Assembly (NCBI GenBank): GCA_944332485.1
Contig: CALVKB010000004.1
Span: forward strand, 1 to 53,983
Origin: an uncultured Bacilli bacterium
GTDB lineage: Bacteria > Bacillota_I > Bacilli_A > RFN20 > CAG-288
Direction: 5' to 3'
Length of the DNA: 53,983 nucleotides
How positions within the stretch are numbered: position 1 is the stretch's first letter; every line of letters begins with the position of its first letter. Below the pieces are notes generated by a model that had not been told where the DNA came from, did not search any database, and worked only from the letters and a program-made list of their open reading frames with translations. A program made the translations under genes and the position numbers. Positions 7,170-27,504 of the stretch are shown here, in pieces.

Positions 7170-8970
7170 ATTATTAAAATCGGATGATAAAGTTGAAAAT
7201 ATAAAAGTTAAAGATTCCATGAGAAAATACAAAAAGTATTTTATTATGGGTCCTATTTTTAAGACTTTTGAAGCAGTTTTCGATTTGATCATCCCTTTAA
7301 TAATGAAAAATATCCTCGATACAATCTCTTCGGGAGTATTATTAACCGATAGTGCAAATTTGAAATACACTTTGATAGGTGGATTGATAATTCTCTCTTT
7401 AGGTATCCTTGGTTTTGCTTCTACGATGGTTTGCCAATATATGGCGAGTGTGGCATCTTTGGGTGTCGGAACCGATTTGAGAAACAAAATTTTCAGGAAA
7501 GTTAGTAATTTCTCGTCTAAGGAGTTTGAAAAGTTTTCAACATCTTACTTACATAATGTATTGAATGCGGATAGTGTCAATGTACAAACTGGTGTTAGCA
7601 TGTTTATCCGTTTGGCTTTCCGTGCTCCACTTCTAATTATCGGTTCATTGATAATATCTTTCATATATTCATGGGAGATTGCTCTTTTATTTGTCGGAAT
7701 TATTCCGATCATTTTGTTGATAATCTTCGTTTTTATGAATAAAGTTGCTAAGAAGTATCAAGATATTCAAAAATCATTGGATGATATAAGTACTGTGACA
7801 ACAGATTCTTTGAATGGTTCAAGAGTTATCCGCGCATTCAATAGACAAAATTATGAAACAGTGAAATTTGAAAATTACAATAATAAATATCTTCAACAAG
7901 GAAGATTGATAAGCTTCATCACAGCTTTTATCAATCCACTCACTTTTGCTGTTGTAAATATTGTGATTATCGTTATTATTTATTTGACAAAACTTGATGT
8001 TTCACAAACAGTCAGTGTTTTTTCAACTGACTTGGAAGTTACGACAATAATAACCTTGGTTAATTATCTTGAGCAGATATTCCAAGCTTTGTTGGTTGTC
8101 AGTAATTTAACTAATATATTTAACAAAGCTATCAATTCTTCAAAACGTATCAACGAAGTATTCAAAGTTGATGTTTCAATAAAGAATAACGGAGAGAGAT
8201 TAGTCAAAAATATAAATCTTGGAGATGAGATTATAAAATTTGATCACGCATATTTATCCTATGAAGATGGTGATAACTATGCACTTAAAGATATAACATT
8301 CAGTTTGAATAAAGGTGAATCTCTTGGAATAATTGGTGGTACAGGATCAGGTAAGTCAAGTTTGATAAACTTGATGATGAGATATTCCGATTGTTCAAAA
8401 GGGTCAGTTTATTATAAAGGTGAAAATATTAAAGAATACGATTTACCATCTTTGAGAAATGATTACGGATTGGTTTTACAAAAAGCTATTTTATTCACAG
8501 GAACTATAAAATCAAATATGCAGATGGCTTATGATAGTATCAAAGATGAGGAGATAACCAAAGCTTTGAAAACAAGTTTAGCTTATGAATTTGTTTCAAA
8601 ATACGATGATTATATCGAACATCCAGTAGTTGAAAATGGTAAGAATTTCTCCGGTGGTCAAAAACAACGTTTGTCCATCGCTAGAAGCTTATGCAAGAAG
8701 AATGAACTTTTGATTTTAGATGATTCAACAAGCGCTTTGGATTATCTTTCTGATTTAAATGTTAGAAAAAATATAAATGAAAACTACAAAGAATTAACCA
8801 AAATTATAATCTCACAACGTGTTTCAACTGTTCAAAACTGCGACAAGATTATCGTTATGGAAAACGGATGTATCTCCGGATTGGGAACACATGAAGAGTT
8901 ACTGGAAACAAATATCATTTACAGAGAAACTTTCATGTCCCAACAGAATGGAGGTAAGATCGATGCTTAA
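7153..8970 (+). CDS. Heterodimeric ABC exporter subunit 1 (TMD+NBD)
   Basis: Hydrophobic TM region, GGTGSGKS, FSGGQKQR, degenerate Walker B LILDDS; start may be ATG 7219. Confidence 0.9.
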   Translation: MLKKSRLLKSDDKVENIKVKDSMRKYKKYFIMGPIFKTFEAVFDLIIPLIMKNILDTISSGVLLTDSANLKYTLIGGLIILSLGILGFASTMVCQYMASVASLGVGTDLRNKIFRKVSNFSSKEFEKFSTSYLHNVLNADSVNVQTGVSMFIRLAFRAPLLIIGSLIISFIYSWEIALLFVGIIPIILLIIFVFMNKVAKKYQDIQKSLDDISTVTTDSLNGSRVIRAFNRQNYETVKFENYNNKYLQQGRLISFITAFINPLTFAVVNIVIIVIIYLTKLDVSQTVSVFSTDLEVTTIITLVNYLEQIFQALLVVSNLTNIFNKAINSSKRINEVFKVDVSIKNNGERLVKNINLGDEIIKFDHAYLSYEDGDNYALKDITFSLNKGESLGIIGGTGSGKSSLINLMMRYSDCSKGSVYYKGENIKEYDLPSLRNDYGLVLQKAILFTGTIKSNMQMAYDSIKDEEITKALKTSLAYEFVSKYDDYIEHPVVENGKNFSGGQKQRLSIARSLCKKNELLILDDSTSALDYLSDLNVRKNINENYKELTKIIISQRVSTVQNCDKIIVMENGCISGLGTHEELLETNIIYRETFMSQQNGGKIDA

Positions 8971-10715: not shown

Positions 10716-12194
10716 ATGAAATACATTCTTGTTCTTGATCAAGGTACAACATCTTCAAGAGTTGTTATATATGATGAAAAATGCCGTGTTATATCCAAAG
10801 CTCAGGAGGAGTTCAAACAAATCTATCCAAAACCAGGCTATGTTGAACATGATCCGATGGATATTTTGTCAAGTTCAAGAAGTGTTATTTCAAGTGCTAT
10901 AACAAGGGCGAAAATAAAATACTCCGAGATTGCAACAATGGGTATCGCCAATCAAAGAGAGACGATAATAGCTTGGAATAAAACTACCGGTGAACCAATT
11001 TACAATGCGATTGTTTGGCAATGTCATCGTACCAGTGATTATTGTGAAAAACTGAAAAAAGACGGTTATGAGAACTTCATTCATGAGAGAACAGGTTTAA
11101 AAATAGACCCTTATTTTTCCGCTACAAAAATTAAATGGTTATTTGATAATGTCCCAGCAGTTAAAGCTTTAAGTGATGAGAATAATTTGTGTATCGGAAC
11201 TATCGATACTTTTTTGATGTTCAATCTTTCAAATGGAAAGATTTTTGCAACAGATTACACCAATGCTTCACGAACATTGTTATTCAATATTCACACTTTG
11301 AAATGGGATGAAGATTTATGTAAATTATTCAATATTCCGATGAATTGTCTTCCAGTAGTCAAACCATCAGGTTCATTTTTTGGATATACAAGCAGCGATA
11401 TTCTAGGTGCAAGTATTCCAATATGTGGCGTGGCTGGTGATCAACAAAGTAGTTTATTTGGGCAATTGTGTTTAAATCAATCTGAGATGAAAGTCACATA
11501 TGGAACAGGATGTTTTTTATTGGTGAATACATCTGATAAAGCGATTGATTCAAAACATGGATTACTTACAACATTGTGCTGTTCTCTTAATGATAAACCT
11601 AATTATGCATTGGAAGGTTCTGTTTTTATCGGTGGAGCTCTTATACAATGGTTAAGAGATGAGTTGAAGATAATAGAAAGCTCCGATGAAACTGAAAAAA
11701 TAGCGATGGAAGTTCCAAATACCAACGGTGTTGTAATTGTTCCATCATTTGTTGGATTGGGGGCACCTTATTGGGAATTTTCATGCACAGGATTGATAAC
11801 CGGTTTAACAAGAGGAGTTAATAAAAATCACCTTGTAAGAGCAAGTTTAGAGTCAATAGCTTATCAAGTACATGATGTTATAAAAGCTATGGAAAAAGAT
11901 ACAAAACTTAAAATTAAACAAGTGAAAGTTGATGGTGGAGCTTCAGTTAATAACTTTTTGTTACAATTCCAATCGGATATTTTGAATGTTGATATTCTTC
12001 GTCCCTACAATATCGAAGTCACCTCTTTAGGTGCTTGCTTTTTGGCTGGTTTGACTGCGAATATTTGGAATGATATCGATATGATTAAACAGTTTAATAC
12101 AACTGAGAAAGTATTTAAATCAAGCATTGATAAAGAGCAAAGAAAGAAGTTGTTATCCTCTTGGCATGATGCTATTAAAAAAGCTTTAGCATAA
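10716..12194 (+). CDS. glpK: Glycerol kinase
   Basis: DQGTTSSR, NQRET, DPYFSATK, TDYTNASRT, GDQQ, TYGTGCF; RBS aaggag before ATG 10716. Confidence 0.95.
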   Translation: MKYILVLDQGTTSSRVVIYDEKCRVISKAQEEFKQIYPKPGYVEHDPMDILSSSRSVISSAITRAKIKYSEIATMGIANQRETIIAWNKTTGEPIYNAIVWQCHRTSDYCEKLKKDGYENFIHERTGLKIDPYFSATKIKWLFDNVPAVKALSDENNLCIGTIDTFLMFNLSNGKIFATDYTNASRTLLFNIHTLKWDEDLCKLFNIPMNCLPVVKPSGSFFGYTSSDILGASIPICGVAGDQQSSLFGQLCLNQSEMKVTYGTGCFLLVNTSDKAIDSKHGLLTTLCCSLNDKPNYALEGSVFIGGALIQWLRDELKIIESSDETEKIAMEVPNTNGVVIVPSFVGLGAPYWEFSCTGLITGLTRGVNKNHLVRASLESIAYQVHDVIKAMEKDTKLKIKQVKVDGGASVNNFLLQFQSDILNVDILRPYNIEVTSLGACFLAGLTANIWNDIDMIKQFNTTEKVFKSSIDKEQRKKLLSSWHDAIKKALA

Positions 12195-12454
12195 AAATTT
12201 TTACTTGTAATAAAAAGTTGCTAATATTAAATTTATCCCATATTTAAGACATTTTTAAATTATAATTTGAAGTTTTCTTATTCATGTTTTGATAATTCAT
12301 ATGTATTGATTTTTTAAACTAGTTTAGAGGTGAATTTATTGAATAAATATAGATTAAATGATTATATTAATATCTAATTTATATATATTAATGCCATGTT
12401 TAAAAACTGATAGTTTTCTTTTATAATAAATAGAGTAAGCAAAGGAGAAAAAAT

Positions 12455-13498
12455 ATGCCTATATATGATGTAGTCAAGTTCGAACGTGATCTTGATGATT
12501 GGTTATTGTACAAATATCCTGAAACAGAATTCAATACTAAATCTAAACTTATCGTTAGTACTAGTCAAGTTGCAATTTTGGTTCACAATGGCAAAATTGA
12601 AAAAATTTGTGAGGAAGGGAAATACAATTTAGACACCGAGCTTCTTCCTTTTGTCAAAGAATTTGTGAAGATGATGCATGGTGGAAAAAATTCTTATCCA
12701 CTTGAAATTTACTTTTTAAATAAACGTATTAAATTAGATTTTTTGTGGGGTACGACAGATCCGATTGTCATACTTGATCCTATTTACAATATTCAATTGA
12801 AAATTAGAGCAAGAGGTCAGTTGGGAATTAAATTAAATAATTATCAATTTTTCATAGAAGGTTTAGTTGGTTCATTGATGACTAATTCATATGTTTCATA
12901 TAAACAAGTTTCGGTATTTTTCAGAGGCTTATTAAATCAGAAAATTAAGAAAGTTTTATCAAGCTATATGTTGCAAAATAAAATTTCTTACTTTGAGATA
13001 AATACTCATTTAGACGAAATCGAAAAAGCATTTTTCGATGAAATTAAAGATGAGATAGTCAAATTAGGTTTTTCACTTATCAATATGAGTGTTGAATCAA
13101 TCAATGTTCCTGATGATAATTTGAACGAGTTGAATAAAATTCTTCATAAGAAAGTTGAATACGAACAATTGGGTGATAATTTGTATAGGACATCAAGAGG
13201 TTATGATGTTTTAGAAGCTGGAGCTAAGAACAATTCATCAGTTGGTTCAATAATTGGTTTAGGATTAGGCGGTGATATTGTAAATGGTTCACGTACAAAC
13301 TCAATTATTCCCAATTCACCGCAACAAGAAGCAAATGATGAAATTGTCTGTCCAAAATGTAATACAAAAGTTCCTTCTGGTAGTAAATTCTGTCCTAACT
13401 GTGGTGAAAAATTGGAAACATATTGTCCACATTGTGGTGCTAAACTTACAAGTGTTGGTAAATTCTGCAGTTCATGCGGAAAGAAACTTTCTGATTAA
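12455..13498 (+). CDS. SPFH/band-7-like domain protein with C-terminal double zinc ribbon
   Basis: SKLIV..SQVAI, WGTTDPI...DP N-terminal pattern; four CxxC pairs (CPKC, CPNC, CPHC, CSSC). Confidence 0.8.
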   Translation: MPIYDVVKFERDLDDWLLYKYPETEFNTKSKLIVSTSQVAILVHNGKIEKICEEGKYNLDTELLPFVKEFVKMMHGGKNSYPLEIYFLNKRIKLDFLWGTTDPIVILDPIYNIQLKIRARGQLGIKLNNYQFFIEGLVGSLMTNSYVSYKQVSVFFRGLLNQKIKKVLSSYMLQNKISYFEINTHLDEIEKAFFDEIKDEIVKLGFSLINMSVESINVPDDNLNELNKILHKKVEYEQLGDNLYRTSRGYDVLEAGAKNNSSVGSIIGLGLGGDIVNGSRTNSIIPNSPQQEANDEIVCPKCNTKVPSGSKFCPNCGEKLETYCPHCGAKLTSVGKFCSSCGKKLSD

Positions 13499-13510
13499 GG
13501 AGAATAAATT

Positions 13511-13999
13511 ATGAAAAGAAGTTCGATATTTTTCATTGTAACAGATGTAATATTCTTAATATTATTGATTTTATTACCTATTTTGCTACCTAACGATGCA
13601 ATAGTCAGAAGCAATTCATTATTAAGTTTATACATCGTTACTAAAGTAATTTGTGCTTTGTACTTGGTTGGTTCAATTTTCTTTATTATATTCAGCAAAA
13701 TCGCCTTTGGTATGGGAGTTGTTTTTGCTGGTACTGCTTATTTCACACAGTTGATTCCATTATTTATAAGATTGATCATCACATACGTGAATGATGAAAG
13801 ATCTGCAATAATAGGTGGTGTGACGTTATTCTTATTGTATGTCATGGTTTTATGTGTCTTTATCGGTGCAAGTTTCTATATGAACAAAAAGATGGTTAAA
13901 TCTGATGAAAAATCAGAAGGTAAGCAAACAACTGAAATCGAGAATAGTCTTGATAAATTTATGAAAGAAAATATCGATGACCAACAAGATATATTGTAA
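13511..13999 (+). CDS. Hypothetical membrane protein (~4 TM)
   Basis: RBS aaggag; four hydrophobic segments, charged C-tail. Confidence 0.75.
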   Translation: MKRSSIFFIVTDVIFLILLILLPILLPNDAIVRSNSLLSLYIVTKVICALYLVGSIFFIIFSKIAFGMGVVFAGTAYFTQLIPLFIRLIITYVNDERSAIIGGVTLFLLYVMVLCVFIGASFYMNKKMVKSDEKSEGKQTTEIENSLDKFMKENIDDQQDIL

Positions 14000-14018
14000 T
14001 AGAAGGTTTTGAATATTT

Positions 14019-14276
14019 ATGGAACAGATAAAAAAAGAATGTTCAGGTTGTGGATACACTTTAAATGAGGATATTGAGTTTTGTCCATATTGTGGAAAAG
14101 CTAATCCTTATTATGTGAAGAAATCTGAAAGTTTAACTGTAACTCAACAACAAAAAAACACATCCGAAAATATTAGTACTGAGAAAAAATCAAAATTTAA
14201 TGCATTTATTTTCATCCTTTTACTTTTGATTTGTTGGCCTATTTCCATTGTTTATTTGATTCTTACAATTAAATAA
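14019..14276 (+). CDS. Zinc-ribbon protein with C-terminal TM segment
   Basis: CSGC...CPYCG; hydrophobic C-terminus FIFILLLLICWPISIVYLI. Confidence 0.75.
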   Translation: MEQIKKECSGCGYTLNEDIEFCPYCGKANPYYVKKSESLTVTQQQKNTSENISTEKKSKFNAFIFILLLLICWPISIVYLILTIK

Positions 14277-14287
14277 AATCAAAGAAT

Positions 14288-14641
14288 ATGAAAACTGTTG
14301 CAAGTATATTTTTATTAATTTCTGCCATCGTTGCTGGTATTGCTACATGGGTGTTAACTTTTATAATTTTTGTTTGGTTCTTCGCTATGCAATCTTCTTC
14401 CATAGAAGGTACAATATCGTTCTTCATACTTTTTATTCCAGCTCTAATTTTACTTACAAGTTTAATTTTTTCATCATTTGCATATAGAAAAATTAATAAA
14501 GCAAAAAGTGCAAAGGAACTTTTTGGGTGGGGTATTATTGCTATTTTTCTAAGTGGAATTTTACCTGGAATCTTTATTTTATTGATCCAGGATAGTGAGT
14601 TACAACCATCAGAACCGAAGAATGTTGATTCTATTGATTAA
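14288..14641 (+). CDS. Hypothetical membrane protein (~3 TM)
   Basis: Three hydrophobic segments; operonic spacing. Confidence 0.7.
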   Translation: MKTVASIFLLISAIVAGIATWVLTFIIFVWFFAMQSSSIEGTISFFILFIPALILLTSLIFSSFAYRKINKAKSAKELFGWGIIAIFLSGILPGIFILLIQDSELQPSEPKNVDSID

Positions 14642-14647
14642 TAAAAT

Positions 14648-14680
14648 TATGGCTGTTAAGAACAAATCTTAATAGCCATA
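14648..14680. terminator. Bidirectional intrinsic terminator between convergent genes
   Basis: TATGGCTGTTAAGA-acaaa-TCTTAATAGCCATA flanked by A and T tracts. Confidence 0.8.
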
Positions 14681-14686
14681 TTTTAT

Positions 14687-16771
14687 TTATTTCAATAATT
14701 CTATAAGTGATGTTTTATCAATATTGTTGATAGTTAGATCAATGTAGTCTGTTATCAAATCATCAGGATTTGTCTCACTATTTTGTTGTGACATCATCTT
14801 TTTTTGATATTTAACAACATCATCTGTTTTGATGGTTTTTATATTTGCTAATTCTAAAACAGTGTTTAAAGTTAATTTGCTTTGTGCCATTTTTTCCAAC
14901 CCTTTGATAAAAAAGTCGGTATTTATATCGGATTTAGGAACCCTTTCGAAATTAGAAAAAGAAGTATTATCAAAGGTGTATATTAATTTTTTGTCAGGGG
15001 TTAGTTTAGCAATACCAAATATTATTTCTTGTCTATTATCAGTAATCTCAAGATTAAATTTCATCACAATATTATTTGGATTTACTAAACCATTGAAAGT
15101 TTTCAAATTTAATTCATCTTTATTTATTTTATTAAAATTGCACTTTTCAGAAACAGCAAAAAATAAGTTAAATGGAATTTTGAGAACATCGTTTGAAAAC
15201 AAAATATCATTGTACAAATTTAATGCCACTAAAAATGTCTCCTCTTTTTTGCCAGGAGCTAAAGCCATAATTTCAGTTGCACCATTTTTTGCATCTGTCA
15301 TATCGCCACTGAAAGCGACTTTCATATCAGTGTCGTTGATTCTTCTGTAGGAATTTTCTAAATTACACCAGCCGAAATACTGTGAAGCATTGAATAAAGA
15401 AAGGTCTAAATCTACTCTGATTTCTTCAGTTTCTTTTTTACGCTTGATATTGTACCAGCTAACACCTATTTTGAAAGAGTCTGTATTGATGTCAGAGTTG
15501 ACATTTTCAATTTCAAAAGTTGAACCACATGGGATGTTATCTAAAAATTGTTTCTCTGAAGTTGGTAAAGCATATGTCAAATTAGTTGGAATAAAAACTG
15601 TTTTATTTCCAACGTTTTCCTTAACACGTTCAACTATCTCATTTAAAATTTTTTGTTTTATGTTTGTTGCCATATCTTTATTTTTGATTTTGTTGAAATT
15701 CTCGCAGACAAAGCTTTTGTTGTTTCTGATTCTGTAAATTATTGGATCATTCTCATTGTTCAAACGATAATTGAACATGTTGTAAATTTTAATCAATTTA
15801 AAAGTTGTCGCCACTTTAATGTCTGCGTTAATTTTCAACATTGTTTTTTCATCAAAATTTTCTAAAGAGGATAATCTTTCTAATATTGGTGTCTTAAATG
15901 CAGTTTTATTCTTGTCAGCTTTCTTTCTAAGACGATTTATAATTCTGTTTGTTTCTGAGAAAGAATTAGCTTCAGTTTTCAATGCTAAAAATAAAGGTTT
16001 AAATCTTAAAAATATAGAACTAAGTTTATCTTCACCGAATAATCGGATGTAGGTTGAAAGTAAATCTTGAGTTTCATCATAATTGCTTCTTGCTTCTTTT
16101 TTTAAACTTGTGATGGAATCTTTACTTTTTATAAGTAAACTTTTACCTGTCAATCTATAAATTAAGTAGCGTAAAAATTCTTCAGGATTTTCAGGAACCA
16201 ATTTGTATATTATATAAAGACTAGTTTTCACTTCTCTATTTTCGATAGTTTCAATGTAGTTTCTCAAATCAAAAACACAAGCTAAATTTTCGATGTGTGT
16301 AATTGTAGACTGTGAAAGGGCGATGCCGGAATTTAACAATTCCAACATTGCATTGATAATTTGTTTTTGGTCCATTGGTTTTATTATTGTCAAATTTGAA
16401 TTTTCATAATCAAATTTTTGCATTTTACAATTTTCGTTTGGAATAACTGAATTAGCTGTCAAGCCAAAAGCTTCCAACCCATAGGTTGAAAAGTAATGAA
16501 TAAGTTGTTCTTCAACAAGTTGTTCATCAGTTGCATTTAAAATTTTATCCCATGTTTTATGGAAAGTATTACTCAAAAGTGCATTATCAATTCCATACAA
16601 TTTTATGGCGGCTTTAACTACTGATTTTGGTGCATCATTAAAAATAACCACACCTTTTTTTAATGCAGTTTTATCAATTTTATTGTAATCAATTGCATTT
16701 AAGTCTTCACAATAGTAAGCCTTAAAAACCATTAACAAAGCTTGTTTGACAAGATTTCCAATTTTATTCAT
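14687..16771 (-). CDS. 694-aa protein: helical, putatively Ro/TROVE-like N-region plus C-terminal TerD-like domain
   Basis: RBS aaggagag; TerD-like motifs GVSW...RVDLDLSLF and FSGDMTDA..GATE; N-terminal TFHKTW...EQLIHYFSTYG. The Ro-like assignment is inference. Confidence 0.6.
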   Translation of the reverse strand: MNKIGNLVKQALLMVFKAYYCEDLNAIDYNKIDKTALKKGVVIFNDAPKSVVKAAIKLYGIDNALLSNTFHKTWDKILNATDEQLVEEQLIHYFSTYGLEAFGLTANSVIPNENCKMQKFDYENSNLTIIKPMDQKQIINAMLELLNSGIALSQSTITHIENLACVFDLRNYIETIENREVKTSLYIIYKLVPENPEEFLRYLIYRLTGKSLLIKSKDSITSLKKEARSNYDETQDLLSTYIRLFGEDKLSSIFLRFKPLFLALKTEANSFSETNRIINRLRKKADKNKTAFKTPILERLSSLENFDEKTMLKINADIKVATTFKLIKIYNMFNYRLNNENDPIIYRIRNNKSFVCENFNKIKNKDMATNIKQKILNEIVERVKENVGNKTVFIPTNLTYALPTSEKQFLDNIPCGSTFEIENVNSDINTDSFKIGVSWYNIKRKKETEEIRVDLDLSLFNASQYFGWCNLENSYRRINDTDMKVAFSGDMTDAKNGATEIMALAPGKKEETFLVALNLYNDILFSNDVLKIPFNLFFAVSEKCNFNKINKDELNLKTFNGLVNPNNIVMKFNLEITDNRQEIIFGIAKLTPDKKLIYTFDNTSFSNFERVPKSDINTDFFIKGLEKMAQSKLTLNTVLELANIKTIKTDDVVKYQKKMMSQQNSETNPDDLITDYIDLTINNIDKTSLIELLK

Positions 16772-16813
16772 ATTACTCTCCTTTATAAAAATTTGCGTTG
16801 GAAAGTTATTATT

Positions 16814-16887
16814 AAAAAAGACGGTCGAGAAGTAATTTTACTTCTAACTGGTAGAATCTTTGACATGAGGAACTTCATTTGACCGCC
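16814..16887 (-). ncRNA. Putative Y-RNA-like stem-loop or structured leader upstream of the TerD-like gene
   Basis: 5' GGCGGUC pairs with 3' GACCGUC (one G-U, valid on minus strand only); GAAGU/ACUUC inner stem; followed by U6. Confidence 0.55.
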
Positions 16888-16904
16888 AAATTAAATTGCA
16901 ATGC

Positions 16905-16960
16905 TTAACAGAATATACAAATATCAGCAGTTTTGATGTTTGGTATATTCCAACTGTTAA
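16905..16960 (-). other. Second long hairpin at the predicted transcript start
   Basis: TTAACA/TGTTAA, GAATATAC/GTATATTC, AAATATCA/TGATGTTT nested inverted repeats. Confidence 0.55.
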
Positions 16961-16962
16961 TA

Positions 16963-16991
16963 ATTTTAAACACAAAAAAATTTAAATGCAA
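16963..16991 (-). promoter_or_regulatory. SigmaA-type promoter for the ncRNA/TerD-like gene
   Basis: TTGCAT-17 bp-TAAAAT on minus strand; start near 16956. Confidence 0.55.
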
Positions 16992-17505: not shown

Positions 17506-17748
17506 TTAGTCTAAATAAGCTTCAAAATCACCAAATGAGCTGACTTTTTGAAGTTTAACATCTGGGAAAGAAGTAACAATTTGAATCTTAATTGTTTCTT
17601 TAGAAAAAGATCTACTGTTGACGATTTTTACTTTGTAATCTCCAAATGAGTCAACGAATTGAACTTTTAAATCAGGGAAAGAAGTAACAACTTTAAACGT
17701 GACTTTTTTCCCTTTGAACTGAGATAAATAACCTTTACTGTAACCCAT
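17506..17748 (-). CDS. 80-aa tandem-repeat protein resembling the 7_1 (septoil) knot family
   Basis: RBS aaggag; two 37-aa-spaced units VTSFPD.K.Q.V.SFGD; DNA repeat GGGAAAGAAGTAACAA at 17564 and 17675. Confidence 0.7.
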   Translation of the reverse strand: MGYSKGYLSQFKGKKVTFKVVTSFPDLKVQFVDSFGDYKVKIVNSRSFSKETIKIQIVTSFPDVKLQKVSSFGDFEAYLD

Positions 17749-17809
17749 AAATTTCTCCTTTTTAATAAATATATAAAATTAAGTGCACTATTTTATGTAC
17801 ATTAGTGTT

Positions 17810-18908
17810 TTATTTAAAAATCTCATCACCTTTTGTTTGAATTATGTATATCGCTTTCTCAATAAAATAGCTTACTTGTTTTTTAATTTCATCATAGTTT
17901 TGAATATCGACTTTAGGCTCAACTTTTTCGTTCCATGTATCAAAATATTGATAAACCCAGTTTCCTGAATAAGAACATGGATTTTTACTCATTGTGGTAG
18001 GATGTCCAAAGATCTCTCTTTTACTTTTTTTATCAAACGTTTTATCAAACCACTTTTCTTCAAGACCTATTTTAAAGATGTTTTCAACAGGTCCTTTGGT
18101 TAAGCCAAGGAAAAGTCTAAATTGATTGTCTTCGATTTGGACACCGATTTGTCCTTTATAATTGTCTCCACTTCCTTTTTGTAATTCAAAAGAGATTGTT
18201 GATTTGCCGTTGTGGAATGACCTAGAAATATAAAAGGTCCATCCAGGAAGGTCTTTGATCTCGTGTTCCGCTAATAATCTTAATTCTTCACATGTTTGAA
18301 CAAAATCATCAGCTTTGTTTTTTCTAAAAACATCCATTAACCTGACTTTACATAATCCTTATTATATTTTCTGACCAATAAGAAAGGCGACCAGCCGTCT
18401 CTTTTAGAGAAAGGTCCATTAAAATATTGATTGAATCCAAAACTTCGCAGTAATCATGAACAATTGATTTCAAATATTCATTATGAATATCAAGCGTTCT
18501 CAAAAAAGAGGAAATTTCATGATAAGAAATAAAAGACCATTTATCCGGTAATTCAAATGGCGGTTCTTTAATACCCGTAATTACACCTTTTTCTAAATTG
18601 GTTTTTTTACTGTATCTTTCTAGCTGTGAGCGATTAGGGTAAGACTTAATTTTATTCTCAATTACATATTCCTTGCCTTTTGAATATATAACAAGGTCTC
18701 TATTTTTATCTTCTCTCTCAATCTCAGCTTCAGAGTAAACATCGATTTCTTTAAAGAAAAAGGAGATAAGTCCTTTGCATTCTTCCTGTTTCATTAAGTA
18801 AGCCCAAAAATTTGAATGAAACAGCTCTTTTGAACCTAAAGACATAGAAAACACAGGCGATTTTCTAAGCTTCTCAATATTTTCTATAAATAATTGATTA
18901 TTTTCCAT
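17810..18908 (-). pseudogene. PD-(D/E)XK nuclease (PDDEXK_4-like) split by a 1-nt frameshift near 18361
   Basis: SLGSKELFHSNFWAYL, RE...RDLVI, VIENKIKS in 5' ORF; removing one base joins 18348-18908 and 17810-18337 into ~365 aa. Confidence 0.65.
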
Positions 18909-19896
18909 ACTTAGCAATTATCCTTTCTGCTTCTGTTTTTGCTCTTTCAATCAGAGATTGAGGTGATAAAATGGTTACGCACTCGCTGTACTGCATATAC
19001 CAGTAGAACAAAGCACTTTCATTACACTTAATATCAGCATACAACTTACCATCCTTGCTATATGTTCTGGCATTTTTACCAAACCAATCAATAACGAATT
19101 GAACGTAACTTGATTGTTCCAACAAGAATGTAGCTTTAATTACTTTTCCATCTAATAGATAGATATTGTCATTTAAATATTTAGCGATATCAAAATCTTT
19201 TACACCTTCTAATGACTCAATTGGCTTAAGCGGCCATTCATCTTCAATTTTTGGATTAAGCATGTAGTCAATTCTGAACCACGTGATTGCACGATATTTT
19301 TCGCGATAATTGCAAATCAAGAAATAACGCCCATTACTATTAGCTGAATAATACGGAGAAACAATGTAACGATAACCGTCCATTTTGGTGTAAGGTTTTC
19401 CGTTTTCATCAAACGTTAAATATTGGAATGAGAGTCTTTTTCCTCTACGTTTGGCTTCTTCAATCAGTTCTAATGTATAGAATAATTCCTTGTTCTCTGA
19501 ACGATTGATTTCGTTACCTTTATAAATAAAGTTGTAGTCTTCTCTTTGATATCTGCTCAGACACGAGTTGAGTTTTTTAGAGAGTTCGGCTGCTTGCTTA
19601 CCACTAATTGACTTACTAGAAAACAAAGAATCAACAATATATCGAATCTCGCTATTATTAAAACTACGTGATAATAATGCATAGCCACCTCTAGGGGACT
19701 TGTTGATATCGTAGTCCAGTTCCTGTAATAGCGATATAGAAAAAGCTACCGATTTGCGTTCTAATTCGATTCCATACAATTCATCAACTTTATTAATGAT
19801 GTCTTGCTGTGTTAGAAAATGATCCTCATCAGAGTATTCTTCCAACACTTTTAAAATCAATAAAATTGAAGCTTTCTTATTTTCAATCATCAACAT
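18898..19896 (-). CDS. WYL-domain transcriptional regulator (wHTH-WYL-WCX)
   Basis: ILKVLEEYSDEDHFLTQQDI wHTH, LSFQY, VSPY...GRYFLI, FRIDYM, VIDWFG, QYSECVTILSPQSL; start ATG 19896 or 19890. Confidence 0.9.
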   Translation of the reverse strand: MLMIENKKASILLILKVLEEYSDEDHFLTQQDIINKVDELYGIELERKSVAFSISLLQELDYDINKSPRGGYALLSRSFNNSEIRYIVDSLFSSKSISGKQAAELSKKLNSCLSRYQREDYNFIYKGNEINRSENKELFYTLELIEEAKRRGKRLSFQYLTFDENGKPYTKMDGYRYIVSPYYSANSNGRYFLICNYREKYRAITWFRIDYMLNPKIEDEWPLKPIESLEGVKDFDIAKYLNDNIYLLDGKVIKATFLLEQSSYVQFVIDWFGKNARTYSKDGKLYADIKCNESALFYWYMQYSECVTILSPQSLIERAKTEAERIIAKYGK

Positions 19897-19929
19897 AATT
19901 ATAGACCTTAATGCTCGGCATTGCACTGA

Positions 19930-20334
19930 CTACTTATTAACATGGTTCAGCAACAAGCATTTTCCTTTTACTTCTAGCAATTCTATTGATCCATCACTAT
20001 ATTCCACTTCTGTGCAATAATCCTCGTGATCAATCCCCGTTAATTCCTTAATAATTGGAACAGGATCAACATCTTCGCCTTCAAAAAGTGCAATAAATGT
20101 TTCTGGATTATAGTACTCACCATCAACTCTACAGTCATTTAAATCAATATCAACTTGTACTAAATGTTTCTTTTCGTTTTTTTCATACTCTCCTTCAAAT
20201 AAAGAAGAAACGCTACAGTTAGAAAGCCTCGCACAGTGAGCAGCGATCTTAATAAAAGGAATATCAGCATAATCGTTTAATGAATAAGTGGCAAAATCCA
20301 CATATAACCAATTGACATCTCTTGCGGTTCTCAT
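19930..20334 (-). CDS. Hypothetical acidic protein
   Basis: RBS aaggag; operonic between AAA protease and WYL genes. Confidence 0.7.
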   Translation of the reverse strand: MRTARDVNWLYVDFATYSLNDYADIPFIKIAAHCARLSNCSVSSLFEGEYEKNEKKHLVQVDIDLNDCRVDGEYYNPETFIALFEGEDVDPVPIIKELTGIDHEDYCTEVEYSDGSIELLEVKGKCLLLNHVNK

Positions 20335-20344
20335 ATTTTTCTCC

Positions 20345-21646
20345 TTAAGCTAATCCTATAATGTTCAGAACCTCAAACGATTTGAGATTTTTCTTTTTAA
20401 ACAATTTGTCGGCCAATTTGATGAGCAACTTTTTGTTTTTCTTGAGATAGTGTTTTGTTTCTTTTTCGCATCTTTTCAGGAGCTTTTCTATTTCGATTTC
20501 ATTATGACGTCTTCTTTCTTCTGTTTCGTTTCTAATATATGGTTTGACTTCTGGAAGAGTATTAGCGCAAGATAAGAAGCCAACTCTGTTTATGGCTCTT
20601 GCTGCGATTTTATATGCTCTTTGCATATCTGAATCACACCCATCGGATCCTTTTTTAAAAATCAACTTTTCAGCAATTAAGCCTGCACAACTAATTTTTA
20701 TATCGGCGATTAATTTATCATGTGGATTGAACTCTCTATTGTTTTCAACAACAGACAAATATCCACCGTTATTGTTGATTGTTAATCTTCCAATCTTAAA
20801 GAATTCTGAGCAAGCTTTTGTCATTAAGGCGTGGCCAGCTTCATGAACTGCGTGCTGATAGATATCACTGTTACTACTATTTTTTACCTGATTAGTTAAA
20901 TTAAAAATTGAGTCATAGATCATTTCTGAAGTTATATTTTCAAAACCATTTGTAAGAAAAACTTCATTAACAATTGATTTAATCGTTGCACAAGGCACAT
21001 CATCTAAAGCTAATTCAAACTCTTCATTAACAAAATCAGATGGAAGAGTAACTCCAAGATCTTTAAAAAGCTTTTTAAGCAATAAAACTGCTTCTTTTCC
21101 TGTAGGAGATGGAATTCTTAAAACTTTTTCAAGGCGTCCACTTCTCATTAAAGGCTCAGGAATTTCATAAATATGATTGGTAGCACATAAAACCAAAATG
21201 TCAGATTCAGAACTAACACCATCGAGGTTATCTTGTAGGACTCTTTCAGCTCTACTGTCCTTGCCAATAAGAAGATCTAATTCATCAATCACAATAACAA
21301 CATGTCCTGTTTCTTTAGCTTTTTTGAACATTTCTTCTAATCCTTCAGAAACATTGTCCATGTCACCTCTAAAGACAAATGTCGGTGCCTCAGCATATTT
21401 AATTGTTTCTTTTATTAATAAAGACTTGCCATTGCCTGGATCACCATACATAAGAATGCCTCGAGGAATATCAACTCCTCTTTTTTTGTATTCCTTTGAT
21501 TCTTTAAACCATTTCAAAACCGAGATTAAGACTTCTTTTTGCTTTTGATGGCCAATTACCTTTCCTAAGGGTTCTTCAGAATCATTAACCTTTTGAGCAG
21601 GAATCAAATCATATGGTAATGTCTTTTTAATATCAATTTCTTCCAT
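20345..21646 (-). CDS. Soluble FtsH-like AAA ATPase / M41 zinc metalloprotease (no TM anchor)
   Basis: RGILMYGDPGNGKS, VIVIDELD, ATNH...LMRSGRLE, HEAGH, GLIAEK, GCDSD. Confidence 0.85.
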   Translation of the reverse strand: MEEIDIKKTLPYDLIPAQKVNDSEEPLGKVIGHQKQKEVLISVLKWFKESKEYKKRGVDIPRGILMYGDPGNGKSLLIKETIKYAEAPTFVFRGDMDNVSEGLEEMFKKAKETGHVVIVIDELDLLIGKDSRAERVLQDNLDGVSSESDILVLCATNHIYEIPEPLMRSGRLEKVLRIPSPTGKEAVLLLKKLFKDLGVTLPSDFVNEEFELALDDVPCATIKSIVNEVFLTNGFENITSEMIYDSIFNLTNQVKNSSNSDIYQHAVHEAGHALMTKACSEFFKIGRLTINNNGGYLSVVENNREFNPHDKLIADIKISCAGLIAEKLIFKKGSDGCDSDMQRAYKIAARAINRVGFLSCANTLPEVKPYIRNETEERRRHNEIEIEKLLKRCEKETKHYLKKNKKLLIKLADKLFKKKNLKSFEVLNIIGLA

Positions 21647-21654
21647 AAAACTAA

Positions 21655-22299
21655 TTACTCCTCTTCTTCGTTGGTAACCTTTTTATTTGGTTTCTTTTTA
21701 TTAATTCCTTTGTCGTATTGTTTGCAATCTTGGATGATTTTATCCTTTTCTTGAGGAGAATAATCCATAAACATGAATGTTTCTGGGTTAGTACTTTCTA
21801 AGTAATTGAATGTCCTTGCAAAAAGTATTGAAATCATTCTTCGTACATTAGGTGATTTATTGTTTGAGGTTCCTTCCACTATTGATTTGAGAAAAACATG
21901 ATCTTCATCTTCTTTTTCGTGGAACTCAAAATAGCCATTCTCCCTATCATAAGCTCTGTTTAAACCATGTTTTCTGGTATTAAGACAAAATCTTTTTCCC
22001 TCAAATTCTTTATAGATGCCATTGTAATAAGACAATAAGTTGTTGTAATTATCATTTACATGAAACTCATTTTTATCTGGACTAATAAAGACATCAATTG
22101 TTCCTATTTGGTTGTGAAGACCATACATTAAATGTGTTGCATCATTGAATTCACGAATTAATTTGTTTTGGAACAACTCTTCGTATTTACTCTGTATAAC
22201 TTCTGGATCTTCCGAATAATTATTCTTTTTTTCAACATTCCATATACCATTTCTTACATTAGCAATCCATGTCATTATTGTTTCAAATTTGAATTTCAT
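21655..22299 (-). CDS. Hypothetical protein, first gene of the protease-WYL operon
   Basis: RBS gaggt; 214-aa ORF, 8 nt upstream of the AAA gene. Confidence 0.7.
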   Translation of the reverse strand: MKFKFETIMTWIANVRNGIWNVEKKNNYSEDPEVIQSKYEELFQNKLIREFNDATHLMYGLHNQIGTIDVFISPDKNEFHVNDNYNNLLSYYNGIYKEFEGKRFCLNTRKHGLNRAYDRENGYFEFHEKEDEDHVFLKSIVEGTSNNKSPNVRRMISILFARTFNYLESTNPETFMFMDYSPQEKDKIIQDCKQYDKGINKKKPNKKVTNEEEE

Positions 22300-22387
22300 T
22301 TTTCTTACCTCGCACCATTATGATACAAAGACCAATGTCCGTTTTTCCGTGCATAGCAAAAAGTACTATAATTGCGAGGAAACAAAG

Positions 22388-22625
22388 ATGAAAAACATTA
22401 AAAACTATGTTATATCAGCCAATATTGATGAAAAAATGAATAAAATTGTTTTAGAAATTAAAAAAAATACGTACAGGTATGTACGAAATTAAGGATTGGG
22501 ATTCATGTGTCGAAACTGCTTTTTTGATTCTAGATAAGATTCTAGAAAACGGCTTAACACCATTAATGTTGGATACATTTATCGAATCATTTTCAAGAAA
22601 CGAAAAAACTAGTTTTGATGCCTAA
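22388..22625 (+). pseudogene. Small divergent gene (~78 aa) interrupted in an A8 run
   Basis: RBS gagg, ATG 22388; A7 instead of A8 at 22460-22467 gives MKNIK...KIRTGMYEIKDWDSCVETAFLILDKILE...FDA*. Confidence 0.45.
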
Positions 22626-23083
22626 AAATATATGATTTGTATTTTTCTTTTATTGTTGAGTATGCTTTTTTGACCGCAGTAGCGGATTTATTAGTTGCTC
22701 TCCCTATTCCTCTAAGAGAAATGTAAGGATTTTTCAGTCTAAACGACAAATAGAACAACTGCTTTTCTGATAGTGTTTTTAAAAAAGCCTCTGCACTCCT
22801 ATCTTCTTCTTGCCAATTTAGAGCATCGTCCACTTTTTCTGAAGAAGCAAGTATGAGCCCTTCAAAATTAAAAGCATCCATTGAAAGACAGTGATATCGA
22901 TTTCTTCTTAACATAGTCAATTCTTGCTTAACGTCATTCGACAAACATAAGAAACCATTCGGCTTTCGTATCTTCAGGATAGTATCTGGTTCTTTTTCCA
23001 TTCTCTAAACGCCATTCAATTCCAATAGGTTCTTTTGTTGTTTTGTTTCTTAGTATTTTTACCCCAGCATAATAATCAATCAT
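22609..23083 (-). pseudogene. Sigma-70 region-4-like HTH protein of mobile-element type, frameshifted near 22935
   Basis: AAAGGAGG RBS before ATG 23083; 49-aa ORF stops at 22934; second frame carries RRNRYHCLSMDA..EG and LSEKQ...SLRGIGRATNKSATAV. Confidence 0.6.
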
Positions 23084-23158
23084 TTCACATCCTCCTTTAA
23101 TTGAATATTACAATGAAAAAGCCCACTACTCAGTTTTTCAACTTTTCATGGGCAATAA

Positions 23159-24604
23159 TTATGCTTTGCTTTCTTCTTTGGTTAAGCGTTCCATTATTTT
23201 CTGGAAAGCTCCTTCGTAGATTCTCTTAATGCCGTTATATTCAACAGTAAGTTGTTCAAGAGTCATGCTGGTGTAGTCTTTTTTCAAATGAGCAGAGCTT
23301 TCCTTAATAAAGTCGTTTAATTGTTTATAGACTAAATCCTTTGTTTTGAGGCTCTTCATCTTTTCTCTTACACCAGAATTCATGATTTCACCAACCATCA
23401 TATTCATCTGATTGATCATGTTCTCACGCTCAGTAATGTAAGTTCTGACTTTAATTGCATCAGCTTCCGACAAAGCGTTCTTGTCAACTTGTAGAAGTTC
23501 GTCAATCGAATAGTTAAGACTATTGTCTATCTTATAAAGATAGTTGATATGGATTGGAGTTGCAAACTTCTTCATTGAAAGCAGCGCTTCCTTAGACCAG
23601 CCTTTCTCAAAGCCGTTCTTAATTAACGAAAGCCCAACTTCAGCAAGTTCCTTAGAATCTTTTCTGTTGAGAACATATTCCACTACTTTTTTAGCGGTCT
23701 CATCTGATACAGCTAATAAGATTCTCACCAAAGATCTTGTTTTGTATTCATTAATCCAGCCTTTAGATAGCAATTGTTCGATAGCTTCTTCGCATCTGGC
23801 TGAGTTAGATTTAACAAAGTCATATTTGCTTTCTTTGAAGAAATAGATTCCAAACACATTAATAACGCTTGTGACTTTAATATATTCATTAAAAATCGAA
23901 CCTAAGTTGTTATCTTTATCTTTGAAGATGAATCTCTCTTTTAGCATTGCATTAAGAACGGTTTGAGATAAAGCATTCCATTGGCCACCAGTTATTTCGC
24001 TAGTAATTTCGCAAGGATAAGCTGAAATATTCATGCTTTGGCCTTTGTAGACTTTATCAAACTCTTCTTTGTCGATTGGAAGGAACTTATTGTCATCTAA
24101 ATTAACAACTATTCTTTCTTCAGAGAAGATAGCATCATATACATCTCTCTTGGTTGTACCTGGTTCGCTTTCAAAGCTGATGTCCAAGAAGGTGGAATTC
24201 TCATCTTTTGGCATCATGAATTGCTTAAGCAATTCTTGATTATCAAAGAGGTTTCCTTCAAAGACCTTGTTTCTAAATCTAGAAGCATTAAACATCTCGT
24301 AATACTTGAAGTGATCAGAAACCATCATAGTTACTGGATATAAGGAATTTTCGATAATTCCATCAATTTGACTTTCTGTGAATTCAGAAATTTCCTTATA
24401 TAGTCTCTTGAAGTGTGAATTAAGAGAACCTTGGCCACAGATTTCTTCAATATAATCGAATGCTTCTTTTTTGGTTTTAGCATTCTTGATTAATGAAGCC
24501 ACTAAATATGAATCGTATGTCGCTTTTTGATAAGTATCATAACGAAGCATTACTTTGTAAAAGGTATTAGGCAAGCTTAGAGCCACTCTTGCTTTGATTT
24601 CCAT
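23159..24604 (-). CDS. Hypothetical 481-aa partner of the helicase
   Basis: Overlaps helicase 3' end by 38 nt, own RBS aaggag; helical/coiled-coil C-terminus. Confidence 0.8.
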   Translation of the reverse strand: MEIKARVALSLPNTFYKVMLRYDTYQKATYDSYLVASLIKNAKTKKEAFDYIEEICGQGSLNSHFKRLYKEISEFTESQIDGIIENSLYPVTMMVSDHFKYYEMFNASRFRNKVFEGNLFDNQELLKQFMMPKDENSTFLDISFESEPGTTKRDVYDAIFSEERIVVNLDDNKFLPIDKEEFDKVYKGQSMNISAYPCEITSEITGGQWNALSQTVLNAMLKERFIFKDKDNNLGSIFNEYIKVTSVINVFGIYFFKESKYDFVKSNSARCEEAIEQLLSKGWINEYKTRSLVRILLAVSDETAKKVVEYVLNRKDSKELAEVGLSLIKNGFEKGWSKEALLSMKKFATPIHINYLYKIDNSLNYSIDELLQVDKNALSEADAIKVRTYITERENMINQMNMMVGEIMNSGVREKMKSLKTKDLVYKQLNDFIKESSAHLKKDYTSMTLEQLTVEYNGIKRIYEGAFQKIMERLTKEESKA

Positions 24605-27071: not shown

Positions 27072-27085
27072 GTTTCTACCTCCTC

Positions 27086-27504
27086 CTAGTAAGCTAATGC
27101 AGCTTCGTAATTTCTCATTGAATATAAAGCTTCTGTATAGATAATTTTGTTCTTTTTCATTTTGTATTTAACTGTGTAATCTCTGTCTTTTTTACTAACT
27201 TTGCGAGGTTCTTCATAGCAGACAATCGATTCATCTATGTATATACATAGTTTTTCTTGCTCCTGCTTAGAACCAACCTTGAAGTAAGGATCATTCTTAT
27301 TGATTTCCTTCAGTTCAAGATGCTCTTCCTCAGAGATATTTCTAACATCAATATTTGCATCCTTCCTATGATGTTTGACTCGTGGCATCCATCTAACCTT
27401 TTCAGTGTTTCTCTTCCGTTCTCTGCATAAACTGGGATGGTCTTAGGAATGTATTTTCCGCTACCAACGTGTCCAAATTGAGCTGTAACTGCATAATGTT
27501 CCAT
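27086..27504 (-). pseudogene. Conserved-hypothetical small protein (~139 aa) split by a 1-nt deletion near 27405
   Basis: RBS aaggag; adding one base gives ...GHVGSGKYIP...AENGRET-AEKVRWMPRVKHHRKDA...NDPYF, a pattern I recognise from Firmicute hypotheticals. Confidence 0.65.

Follow-up and report, generated by a model that had tools for sequence, protein, structure and literature searches.

What kind of genetic unit is represented by a gene for a protein of no named family that is preceded, on the same strand, by an untranslated region with the features of a folded RNA? The question arose for a contig of 53,983 nucleotides (nt) from an uncultured Bacilli bacterium (GenBank assembly GCA_944332485.1, contig CALVKB010000004.1), the whole of which is referred to here as the window. 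On its minus strand an ATG at 16771 opens a 694-codon frame ending at 14687, and a 68-nt element lies upstream from it. A first-pass annotation had read the pair as a divergent relative of the Ro60/TROVE proteins accompanied by its own Y-like RNA, and the coordinates, strand, 68-nt element, paired ends, inner helix, U-run, open reading frame (ORF) and TerD-like motifs that it listed are all present on the minus strand. We find this element to be a structured RNA that is conserved and tied specifically to the family of the 694-amino acid (aa) protein, and we consider it probable that RNA and protein constitute a cognate, physically interacting pair which is not a member of the TROVE group. No description of such a protein-RNA pair was found in the full-text literature, the supplementary tables of PMC10690425 and PMC4201824 lying outside the scope of that search.

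A conserved RNA linked to a widespread protein family

The 694-aa protein gave no family match among Pfam, PHROGs, PADLOC and PDB sequences, and a match to GlutR_dimer (E 0.003) fell below the cut-off. Its own family is large. A word-indexed search yielded 1001 family proteins at E <= 0.001 among 8000 scored candidates, and an exhaustive search of cluster representatives yielded 1164 at the same threshold, 1030 at 1e-10 and 615 at 1e-30. Nearly all members have lengths of 600-700 residues and can be aligned over their full length at 30-38% identity, and many basic and aromatic residues are invariant across 41 aligned members. The source records name the relatives only as "hypothetical protein", and a cluster look-up of seven of them gave no usable names. 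When one genome per prokaryotic species was scanned, 101 loci were confirmed, of which 80 were kept (the L-numbered loci found through the protein and called cellular below). Their bacterial carriers belong to the Bacillota, Cyanobacteriota, Planctomycetota, Desulfobacterota, Bacteroidota, Chloroflexota and Gammaproteobacteria, and archaeal metagenome-assembled genomes (MAGs) carrying the gene are assigned to the Promethearchaeota, the DPANN lineages Pacearchaeota, Woesearchaeota and Nanoarchaeota, the Thermoplasmata and Methanobrevibacter.

Viruses are also prominent in the family. The ESM-Atlas clusters nearest to the 694-aa protein are 70-100% viral, tblastn located family members in the Synechococcus phages S-CRM01 and S-CBWM1 and in the gut phage Phass-1, and full-length structural relatives in BFVD derive from a Siphoviridae MAG, Campylobacter virus IBB35 and Lactobacillus phage LpeD. 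A search of plasmid records with the family protein gave no match. Within the 1.13-Mb genome to which the window belongs the gene is single-copy, and a search of 60 related genomes, of which 36 belong to the same family, did not find it.

Inspection of the 120 nt before each start codon revealed a common pattern upstream of most homologues across phyla, in which a stem strand with GGC at its end is followed by A-N-A, one strand of a 5-nt helix, UUCCU, a stretch of variable sequence and UUA, and then by the complementary strand, C, GCC and the remainder of the stem. In its strict form, the pattern occurs 116 times on the gene's strand, and once on the opposite strand, within the 827,194 nt of the 80 loci. 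Alignment A3, which combines the window element with 56 short copies selected by a pattern demanding 9 of the 12 pairs, contains 10 invariant and 8 nearly invariant columns, and the window copy aligns column for column. Given no structure, RNAalifold recovered from A3 both helices together with the invariant U-A pair that closes stem 2. Pairing extends to 92.3% of the cells, as against 69.6% after shuffling, and covariation reaches 0.672 as against 0.226, with none of 500 shuffles as high; pairing drops to 43-57% when the partner is slid by one to three columns, and double changes occur at all 12 pairs. Pair 6-73, on which the selecting pattern made no demand, is kept in 48 of the 57 sequences by way of GC, UA, CG, UG and AU.

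A covariance model built from A3 (R1) was applied to the window and the 80 loci with a cut-off of E <= 0.1. All 117 matches, one in the window and 116 in the loci, are co-oriented with the family gene. Those in the loci are spread over 69 of the 80, and 112 of them lie upstream of the gene and four just downstream; one copy is present in 42 loci, two in 16, three in five, four in three and five in three. Among the 11 loci lacking a match, six hold less than 130 nt upstream of the gene and two carry only the permuted form described below. The covarying stem upstream of homologues, on which the first-pass annotation had made its RNA depend, is borne out by RNAalifold, by the comparison with shuffles and by R1. 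In the window the 68-nt element is the sole match, and the same copy is the sole match in the 1.13-Mb genome (150 of 1491 first-look candidates scored), while the 60 relatives lacking the protein yielded none. Two phages that are not in the model carry the RNA as well, S-CRM01 with three copies directly upstream of g174 and one directly after it, and Phass-1 with a run of five consecutive copies at a distance of 1.3 kb downstream from its gene. Evidence from the single sequence would alone be insufficient, as the element folded by itself has an energy of -17.6 kcal/mol and a modest z of -2.44, equalled by 3 of 200 shuffles; it is the comparison with relatives that lifts the element above chance, since R1 scores it at 42.5 bits (E 3e-8).

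A further test took no account of the protein. IMG/VR was searched with the IUPAC pattern GGCANANNNNGTTCCT-N(12-42)-TTACNNNNCGCC, in which four stem-2 positions are left free, and 112 viral stretches matched, 80 of which were read as loci. All four free positions are paired in 84 of 94 pattern instances and in 75 of the 82 distinct ones, whereas shuffling of the 3' strands gives 11.2 +/- 2.9 (maximum 24, 1000 trials). The free positions of the distinct instances include 15 G.U pairs and no A.C mismatch, which places the structure in RNA and on this strand. Similarly, a G.U pair in stem 1 of the window copy would be a C.A mismatch on the other strand and indicates the minus strand, as was originally argued. 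The family protein was detected (tblastn, E <= 1e-5) in 58 of the 80 viral loci, where 70 of 70 motif instances are co-oriented with its gene. Eight of the 22 loci lacking it have less than 450 nt downstream of the motif, and when ten of the 22 were checked as whole records, four (78-100% complete by CheckV) were found to hold the protein elsewhere.

The conserved part of the RNA, termed the handle here, is built from stem 1 with four to seven or more pairs, an internal loop in which A-N-A lies opposite one C, stem 2 with five pairs and the invariant U-A, and a junction with UCCU on one side and usually U on the other. Invariant letters are concentrated at two places, the internal loop and the junction, which are one stem-2 length, or half a helical turn, apart. 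The copies range from 48 to 134 nt with a median of 60 nt, and in relatives the variable cargo held by the handle may be a hairpin, a T arm, a whole permuted tRNA-like domain or a complete tRNA. A T-loop motif is present in 17 of 107 distinct copies, and longer copies (e.g., those of L003, L008, L015, L072, L078 and L082) show, in succession, a T arm, the acceptor 3' strand, a capping loop, the acceptor 5' strand and a D arm. According to the accessible text of Chen et al. 2014 (PMC4201824), the tRNA-like domain of YrlA Y RNAs has the same permuted order. In locus L019 (4674-4789) the two halves of the handle enclose a complete tRNA, which scores 66.9 bits with the Rfam tRNA model, has an encoded CCA and an anticodon read as CAU, and the handle would there constitute the leader-trailer helix of a pre-tRNA.

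The reverse arrangement occurs in 12 loci, where a full-length match to the tRNA model, 110-174 nt in length, lies just upstream of the gene and on its strand. These matches cover positions 1-71 (1-70 in one instance) of the 71-position model and carry an insert of approximately 40-100 nt in the anticodon loop. In L027, 44 nt replace three anticodon-loop positions, and the insert is a handle with a loop-closed stem 1. ARAGORN called none of the permuted forms a tRNA. The two forms represent a single secondary structure in two circular permutations, and because this is hard to explain otherwise, the folded RNA itself appears to be the functional object.

The proposed likeness to Y RNAs is borne out in part: relatives do carry a permuted tRNA-like domain and the window copy is a minimal form devoid of the arm, but neither an Rfam Y RNA nor the Ro-binding motif is matched. 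Rfam scans of the window and 21 loci at gathering scores, the check suggested for assigning the element to a known RNA family, reported tRNAs only, and a scan around the element at E <= 10 gave two chance-level matches on the other strand. The window element also has no match to the Rfam tRNA model RF00005.

Small ORFs are annotated across the RNA motif arrays of both phages named above. Gene g173c of S-CRM01, on the opposite strand, overlaps the array in the stretch L101 3668-3894, as does a "hypothetical protein" coding sequence (CDS) of Phass-1 (L102 7052-7351) in the stretch L102 7043-7446. Probably, these ORFs are not genes.

The protein and its relation to Ro60

An AlphaFold2 model based on 41 sequences (predicted local distance difference test, pLDDT, 82.7; predicted template modelling score, pTM, 0.82) is mostly helical to about residue 390, beta-rich between about 420 and 605, and ends in a helical tail. 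Its C-terminal half is predicted to be a TerD-like beta-sandwich fold, a fold known so far from resistance to tellurite and stress, where its mechanism is not clear. At the sequence level, Pfam TerD (PF02342) matched neither the 694-aa protein at E <= 1 nor the 41 members at E <= 0.01, and no Pfam family was common to two of the aligned members. The ESM-Atlas includes a cluster with TerD on 22% of its members (score 0.89), which serves as a lead only. D454-L-D456 and S488-G-D490..E500 are invariant in the 41 sequences and may be equivalent to the calcium sites of TerD. Other ESM-Atlas clusters carry Prok-RING_4 (scores 0.83-0.87), and a single weak NCBIfam match, to NF041916 (MXAN_6230/SCO0854 RING-domain), spans residues 368-525 (about 15197-15670) with E 0.004 and 15.4 bits against a cut-off of 600 bits. 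These leads hint at a distantly related family in the Actinomycetota and Myxococcota with a common linker and TerD-like region.

The N-terminal helical domain has no clear match to a known fold. Foldseek matches in the PDB to clostridial neurotoxin chains and similar structures were rejected as spurious whole-chain alignments (root mean square deviation > 25, probability <= 0.2). No ToxN/AbiQ-type fold occurs in the structural match lists and PADLOC reported none, although absence from such lists does not exclude it.

The relationship to Ro60 put forward in the first-pass annotation was examined at several levels. Pfam TROVE (PF05731) and vWA matched neither the 694-aa protein at E <= 1 nor any of the 41 members at E <= 0.01. 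A comparison set of 11 Planctomycetota proteins, all of which carry Pfam TROVE and 10 of which carry vWA_Ro60 (PF25045), was aligned by hhalign with the family alignments A1 and A2, and the probability was 0.2% (E 0.38 and 0.31), the comparison profile being shallow and drawn from one phylum. Moreover, Ro60 is not among the 50 best structural matches of the isolated N-terminal model, and TROVE was not found in the genome containing the window nor in 150 sampled genomes of its phylum. Kinship of the 694-aa protein to Ro60/TROVE is not supported by these sequence and model comparisons. That part of the proposal which placed TerD where Ro60 has vWA fares better, in that the position of a C-terminal vWA domain with a MIDAS (metal ion-dependent adhesion) site is occupied by the predicted TerD-like domain, with no vWA match.

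On one Planctomycetota chromosome (G209, with loci L062 and L083), a 549-aa gene with TROVE and vWA_Ro60 is located downstream of the family gene at a distance of about 1.8 kb, in convergent orientation and with a single 499-aa ORF between them. In a second genome carrying both genes the two are far apart. The adjacency may be due to chance because it is a single case.

Genomic setting of the family and of the window copy

Approximately 1,600 neighbouring ORFs from 160 loci were clustered and no conserved neighbour gene emerged, the largest non-family cluster being a DNA methylase present in 10 loci; the idea of a conserved partner protein was dropped on these grounds. Transfer RNA genes recur around the family. 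The 80 viral loci contain 280 of them, with at least one in 38 loci and at least three in 27, and the 80 cellular loci contain 131, with at least one in 19 and at least three in nine; for scale, the 54-kb window has four, and these counts stand without a matched background rate. Gene g174 of S-CRM01 lies in the middle of the phage tRNA array, and S-CRM01 and S-CBWM1 are, according to the accessible text of PMC9964418, two of four cyanophage isolates with more than 20 tRNA genes.

An RtcB ligase cluster is represented in 6 of the 160 loci, with one member verified by Pfam. A scan of 146 flanking genes, taken from 46 loci, encountered HAD_SAK_2 (a HAD domain of proteins for RNA repair), a nucleotidyltransferase of the CCA-adding type, an exonuclease resembling RNase T and a SpoU methylase once each; the remainder are unrelated housekeeping and phage genes. 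RtcB had been reported absent from the window, and it was found neither there nor in the genome (94% complete). One Desulfobacterales MAG contig (L037) carries 13 tRNA genes in a row at 10962-13683, about 3 kb downstream of the family gene, and also has RtcB upstream and an RNase T-like gene downstream; the stretch looks like a prophage or a tRNA-array island.

The features of the window copy and its gene are summarised in Table 1. The RNA element is GC-rich (41%, against 33.2% for the window and about 28% for the region of the 694-aa gene), in accord with the original description. The promoter given in that description can be upheld only as far as its letters are concerned: both hexamers and the 17-nt spacer are present, with TAAAAT about 75 nt ahead of the RNA element and the site about 185 nt ahead of the ATG, but it is indistinguishable from chance. 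A consensus scan of the window found 23 sites where 20.2 +/- 5.0 are expected, which is no excess, and this site was not listed because its -35 hexamer has three of six consensus matches. A promoter closer to stem 1 was sought by eye in the window and none was convincing. R1 gives no match at the hairpin predicted between the candidate promoter and the RNA module.

Table 1. Features of the RNA module, the 694-aa gene and their borders in the window (positions are those of the window)
Feature	Position	Strand	Remarks
Promoter-like -35 hexamer TTGCAT	16986-16991	minus	read from sequence; 3/6 consensus matches
Promoter-like -10 hexamer TAAAAT	16963-16968	minus	17-nt spacer after -35; 5/6 consensus matches only
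Predicted leader hairpin between candidate promoter and RNA module	16905-16960	minus	RNAfold on 189-nt leader
Conserved RNA module, 68 nt	16820-16887	minus	GGCGGUCAAAUGAAGUUCCU...UUACUUCUCGACCGUC
Stem 1 (GGCGGUC...GACCGUC)	16887-16881 with 16826-16820	minus	7 pairs including one G.U
Internal loop	16880-16878 opposite 16827	minus	AAA opposite bulged C
Stem 2	16877-16873 with 16832-16828	minus	U.U at base, then GAAG/CUUC
Stem-2 closing pair	U16872-A16833	minus	invariant
Junction	16871-16868	minus	UCCU; UU at 16835-16834 on 3' side
Variable loop	16867-16836	minus	plain, 32 nt
Competing hairpin AGAAGUA-AAAU-UACUUCU	16828-16845	minus	sequesters 3' strand of stem 2
U6 run, terminator-like	16814-16819	minus	immediately 3' of stem 1; read from sequence
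Shine-Dalgarno-like AAAGGAGAG	16776-16784	minus	ends 4 nt ahead of ATG; read from sequence
CDS residues 1-400	15572-16771	minus	mostly helical N-terminal domain; no recognised fold
CDS residues about 420-625	14897-15514	minus	predicted TerD-like beta-sandwich (RVDLDLS, FSGDMTDA..GATE)
CDS residues 626-694 and stop codon	14687-14896	minus	helical C-terminal tail
Hairpin between convergent genes	14648-14680	both	14-pair stem; terminator scan (plus-strand entry); U-rich tract follows on minus strand

The minimum-energy fold that RNAfold assigns to the window copy uses the AGAAGUA/UACUUCU hairpin and not the inner helix, at -16.4 kcal/mol against -14.3 kcal/mol for the best conserved fold. An alternative already raised in the first-pass annotation is that this hairpin could serve as an autoregulatory attenuator, and it may do so in this one copy, where it is favoured by 2.1 kcal/mol. 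Stem 2 is kept in the minimum-energy fold of 83 of 90 distinct strict-pattern relatives, so that a dominant competitor is not the rule, and in the window the hairpin could be a local regulatory switch or an accident. Stem 1 stands directly before the U-run, but it encloses 54 nt and a terminator scan made no call. In relatives, a T-run follows 23 of 66 of the 3'-most copies and 6 of 41 other copies; with only 23 of the 66 so equipped, termination after the RNA is not family-wide.

The hairpin at 14648-14680 is likely to be a two-way terminator that ends the 694-aa gene. It is shared with an operon-like convergent set of genes on the plus strand (12455-14641), comprising an SPFH/Band-7 protein (12455-13498) that has a double zinc ribbon at its C-terminus, followed by an ORF of 162 aa, a zinc-ribbon protein of 85 aa and an ORF of 117 aa. 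On the other side, a terminator-like hairpin (17265-17246) separates the 694-aa unit from a run of defence-type genes on the minus strand (17506-27388). The run includes an SF1 helicase (24567-27071) matching PADLOC MkoA at 255 bits, a soluble FtsH-like AAA+/M41 protease (20345-21646) with weak similarity to IetA, a WYL-domain protein (18898-19926), a short PD-(D/E)XK protein (18348-18917) matching PDC-S26 and several ORFs of no family; it looks like a defence island, in which no known complete system was identified. Elsewhere in the window, ARAGORN calls an 87-nt tRNA-Ile(GAT) at 8328-8414 that the Rfam tRNA model does not report at its gathering score, and the call may be atypical or false. 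A repeat or mobile element was rejected as an explanation, the 161-nt region being single-copy in the genome, as was a plasmid origin, no plasmid record having matched.

Alternative explanations and known systems

RNA and protein very likely act together. This follows from the conservation and covariation of the RNA, its strict co-orientation with the gene, their co-occurrence at the level of genomes and the lack of a third conserved partner. Direct binding of the handle by the protein would be the simplest form of joint action, and the unit can be pictured as consisting of two parts, a structured RNA and a protein that most likely binds it. The protein would read two sites, the internal loop and the junction at which the invariant nucleotides cluster, and would hold the handle helix while the RNA presents its tRNA-like module to other factors, in the manner of Ro60 and Y RNA. 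The RNA would then be expected to accumulate as a stable species. As the unit often lies within phage tRNA arrays, it may serve the surveillance of tRNA or RNA in the conflict between phage and host; we offer this role tentatively, as the best guess but one with a greater chance of being wrong than right, and it draws on context, namely the phage tRNA arrays and the occasional RtcB, CCA-adding-type and RNA-repair neighbours.

A number of observations weigh against a cognate pair with a stable RNA. Binding of RNA by the N-terminal domain is a prediction for a domain whose fold is not recognised. In the free window RNA the stem-2 pair probability is 0.024, the competitor being more stable. The pair percentages of A3 are partly circular because the selecting pattern demanded 9 of the 12 pairs, and the independent covariation figures are those for pair 6-73 and for the free positions of the protein-blind search. 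RNA-repair neighbours are few (RtcB in 6 of 160 loci, the others single) and have no background rate behind them. In 14 viral loci whose sequence continues downstream of the motif for 700 nt or more, the DNA read contained no family gene, and six of the ten records checked as a whole lacked the protein, all of them fragments of 2-21% completeness. Finally, in most loci the nearest copy has its 3' end no more than about 20 nt from the estimated start codon, and T-runs are few, for which reasons the proximal copy could be a cis-acting leader.

The last point leads to the likeliest of the rivals, which sees in the element a cis-acting leader and no more: the 5' untranslated region of the protein's own mRNA would be bound by the protein or by another factor, and this would determine whether transcription terminates at the U-run or whether the ribosome-binding site is accessible, with no separate stable RNA and no action in trans. 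The window, with stem 1, U6 and a possible switch hairpin, is compatible with it, as is a -10-like box detected by eye about 7 nt before stem 1 in several relatives, such that the RNA would begin the mRNA. However, 27 of the 69 matched loci hold two to five tandem copies, other copies lie downstream of the gene (L075, L078, L079 and S-CRM01), 1-9 kb away or elsewhere in the phage genome, tRNA-shaped cargo and a permuted form within a tRNA-like scaffold are hard to explain for an operator, and the scarcity of T-runs after the 3'-most copies fits poorly with termination. We regard it as unlikely that the RNA is a leader and nothing else. A dual role, with the leader processed into a stable RNA, is possible, and the copy nearest to the start codon may also take part in autoregulation. 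Because the cargo is varied, copies occur in tandem and at distal positions, and two permutations exist, we argue that at least some copies are stable RNAs and not mere mRNA leaders.

The order of promoter, RNA, U-run and protein gene, the tandem RNA arrays of relatives, the stand-alone two-part organisation with its patchy, mobile spread and absence from the 60 relatives, and the defence-type genes adjoining the window copy (MkoA-like helicase, WYL, PDC-S26-like nuclease) would all suit a type III toxin-antitoxin (TA) or abortive-infection pair, in which the RNA neutralises a toxic protein and a terminator sets their ratio. Such a pair is nonetheless improbable in our judgement, given that the arrays consist of divergent copies with different cargo and not of near-identical direct repeats, that the window has a single copy, that PADLOC finds none and no nuclease-like fold is recognised among the structural matches listed, and that lytic phages commonly carry the gene within their tRNA arrays, which suits benefit to the phage better than suicide of the host. 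We consider it very improbable, after the profile and structural comparisons given above, that the protein is a genuine Ro60/TROVE homologue that has diverged very far, with TerD replacing vWA and a divergent Y RNA at its side. Least credible of all is an RNA that works without the protein, as a signal for processing or stability of tRNA arrays, a small ribozyme or a riboswitch, and merely travels with the gene. The L019 handle halves, flanking a complete tRNA with encoded CCA like a leader and trailer, and the many copies among tRNA genes would fit, but 61 of the 80 cellular loci are without a tRNA gene although RNA and gene are present in most, co-orientation is complete in both searches (70/70 and 117/117), all four near-complete viral records hold the protein, and the sole copy in the 1.13-Mb genome precedes this gene.

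The cognate pair may be stated in a broader form, for and against which we see the case as evenly balanced. It would represent a new and widespread class of ribonucleoprotein (RNP) in phages, bacteria and archaea, in which a protein combining a TerD domain with a helical RNA-binding domain of a novel kind would grip the conserved bulged handle, itself fused in two circular permutations to tRNA-shaped RNAs, the permuted forms being matured by tRNA-processing enzymes, and which serves or guards tRNA pools, such as those of large phage tRNA arrays when phage and host are in conflict, as a non-homologous counterpart of Ro60 and Y RNA. If this is true, a new class of structured RNA with natural circular permutation and a defined protein-recognition module would be added to those known, RNA binding could be assigned as a role to a large family of proteins now called hypothetical, the TerD fold would acquire a link to RNA, and unexplained gaps and doubtful small ORFs in phage tRNA arrays would be accounted for.

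Among known systems, the MXAN_6230/SCO0854 RING proteins (NF041916) differ in that the match of 15.4 bits is far below 600 and no RING domain is present in the 694-aa protein. Members of the TerD family proper (TerD/TerE/TerZ, PF02342) also differ, since here the predicted domain is set between a 400-residue helical domain and a helical tail, outside a ter operon and with no Pfam match. Systems of the ToxIN type resemble the present one in combining an RNA gene, a terminator-like element and a protein gene in one unit, in having some arrays and in their patchy mobile spread; they are unlike it with respect to the divergent cargo-bearing copies, the failure of any ToxN/AbiQ-like fold or PADLOC model to match and the frequent location in tRNA arrays of lytic phages. 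A survey of IMG/VR described 10,006 csRNAs, including unnamed candidates upstream of genes or partly overlapping tRNA predictions (PMC10690425), and the present RNA motif may be among them; the accessible text of that catalogue names no protein partner, TerD-domain family or permuted form.

The closest parallel is with Ro60 (Rsr) and its Y RNA or YrlA. There are clear differences. The protein has no detectable similarity to TROVE or vWA_Ro60 and its predicted C-terminal domain is a TerD-like beta-sandwich, the family extends to archaeal MAGs, and Y RNAs have, to our knowledge, no equivalent of the permuted form in which the anticodon loop holds the handle. The handle sequence, GGC-ANA-helix-UUCCU...UUA-helix-C-GCC, is likewise distinct from the Ro-binding GNCGAAN0-1G (in the accessible text of PMC4201824) or GGUCCGA. 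The pair is accordingly filed as Ro-Y-like in its working but as a non-member, because neither the protein nor the handle is detectably related to Ro60 or Y RNA. The likenesses concern layout and logic. In both systems the gene for the protein and its cognate small RNA or RNAs are adjacent and on the same strand, a helical N-terminal part is followed by a C-terminal domain of a metal-binding family, bacteria and phages are among the carriers with RtcB as an occasional neighbour, and several RNAs may accompany one protein. A bulged handle helix formed from the RNA ends and a variable, often tRNA-like, module are also common to both, as far as the accessible text of PMC4201824 describes them.

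The function of the tRNA-like part of Y RNAs is unsettled, and we know of no particle other than that of Ro60 and Y RNA in which a protein-held handle presents a tRNA-like RNA. Provided that the proposed pair is real, its more than 1000 protein clusters and cultured phages such as S-CRM01 would supply an independent and tractable system for learning what the tRNA-like module recruits, and the two would stand as systems of the same logic assembled from apparently unrelated parts, pointing to a design under recurrent selection.

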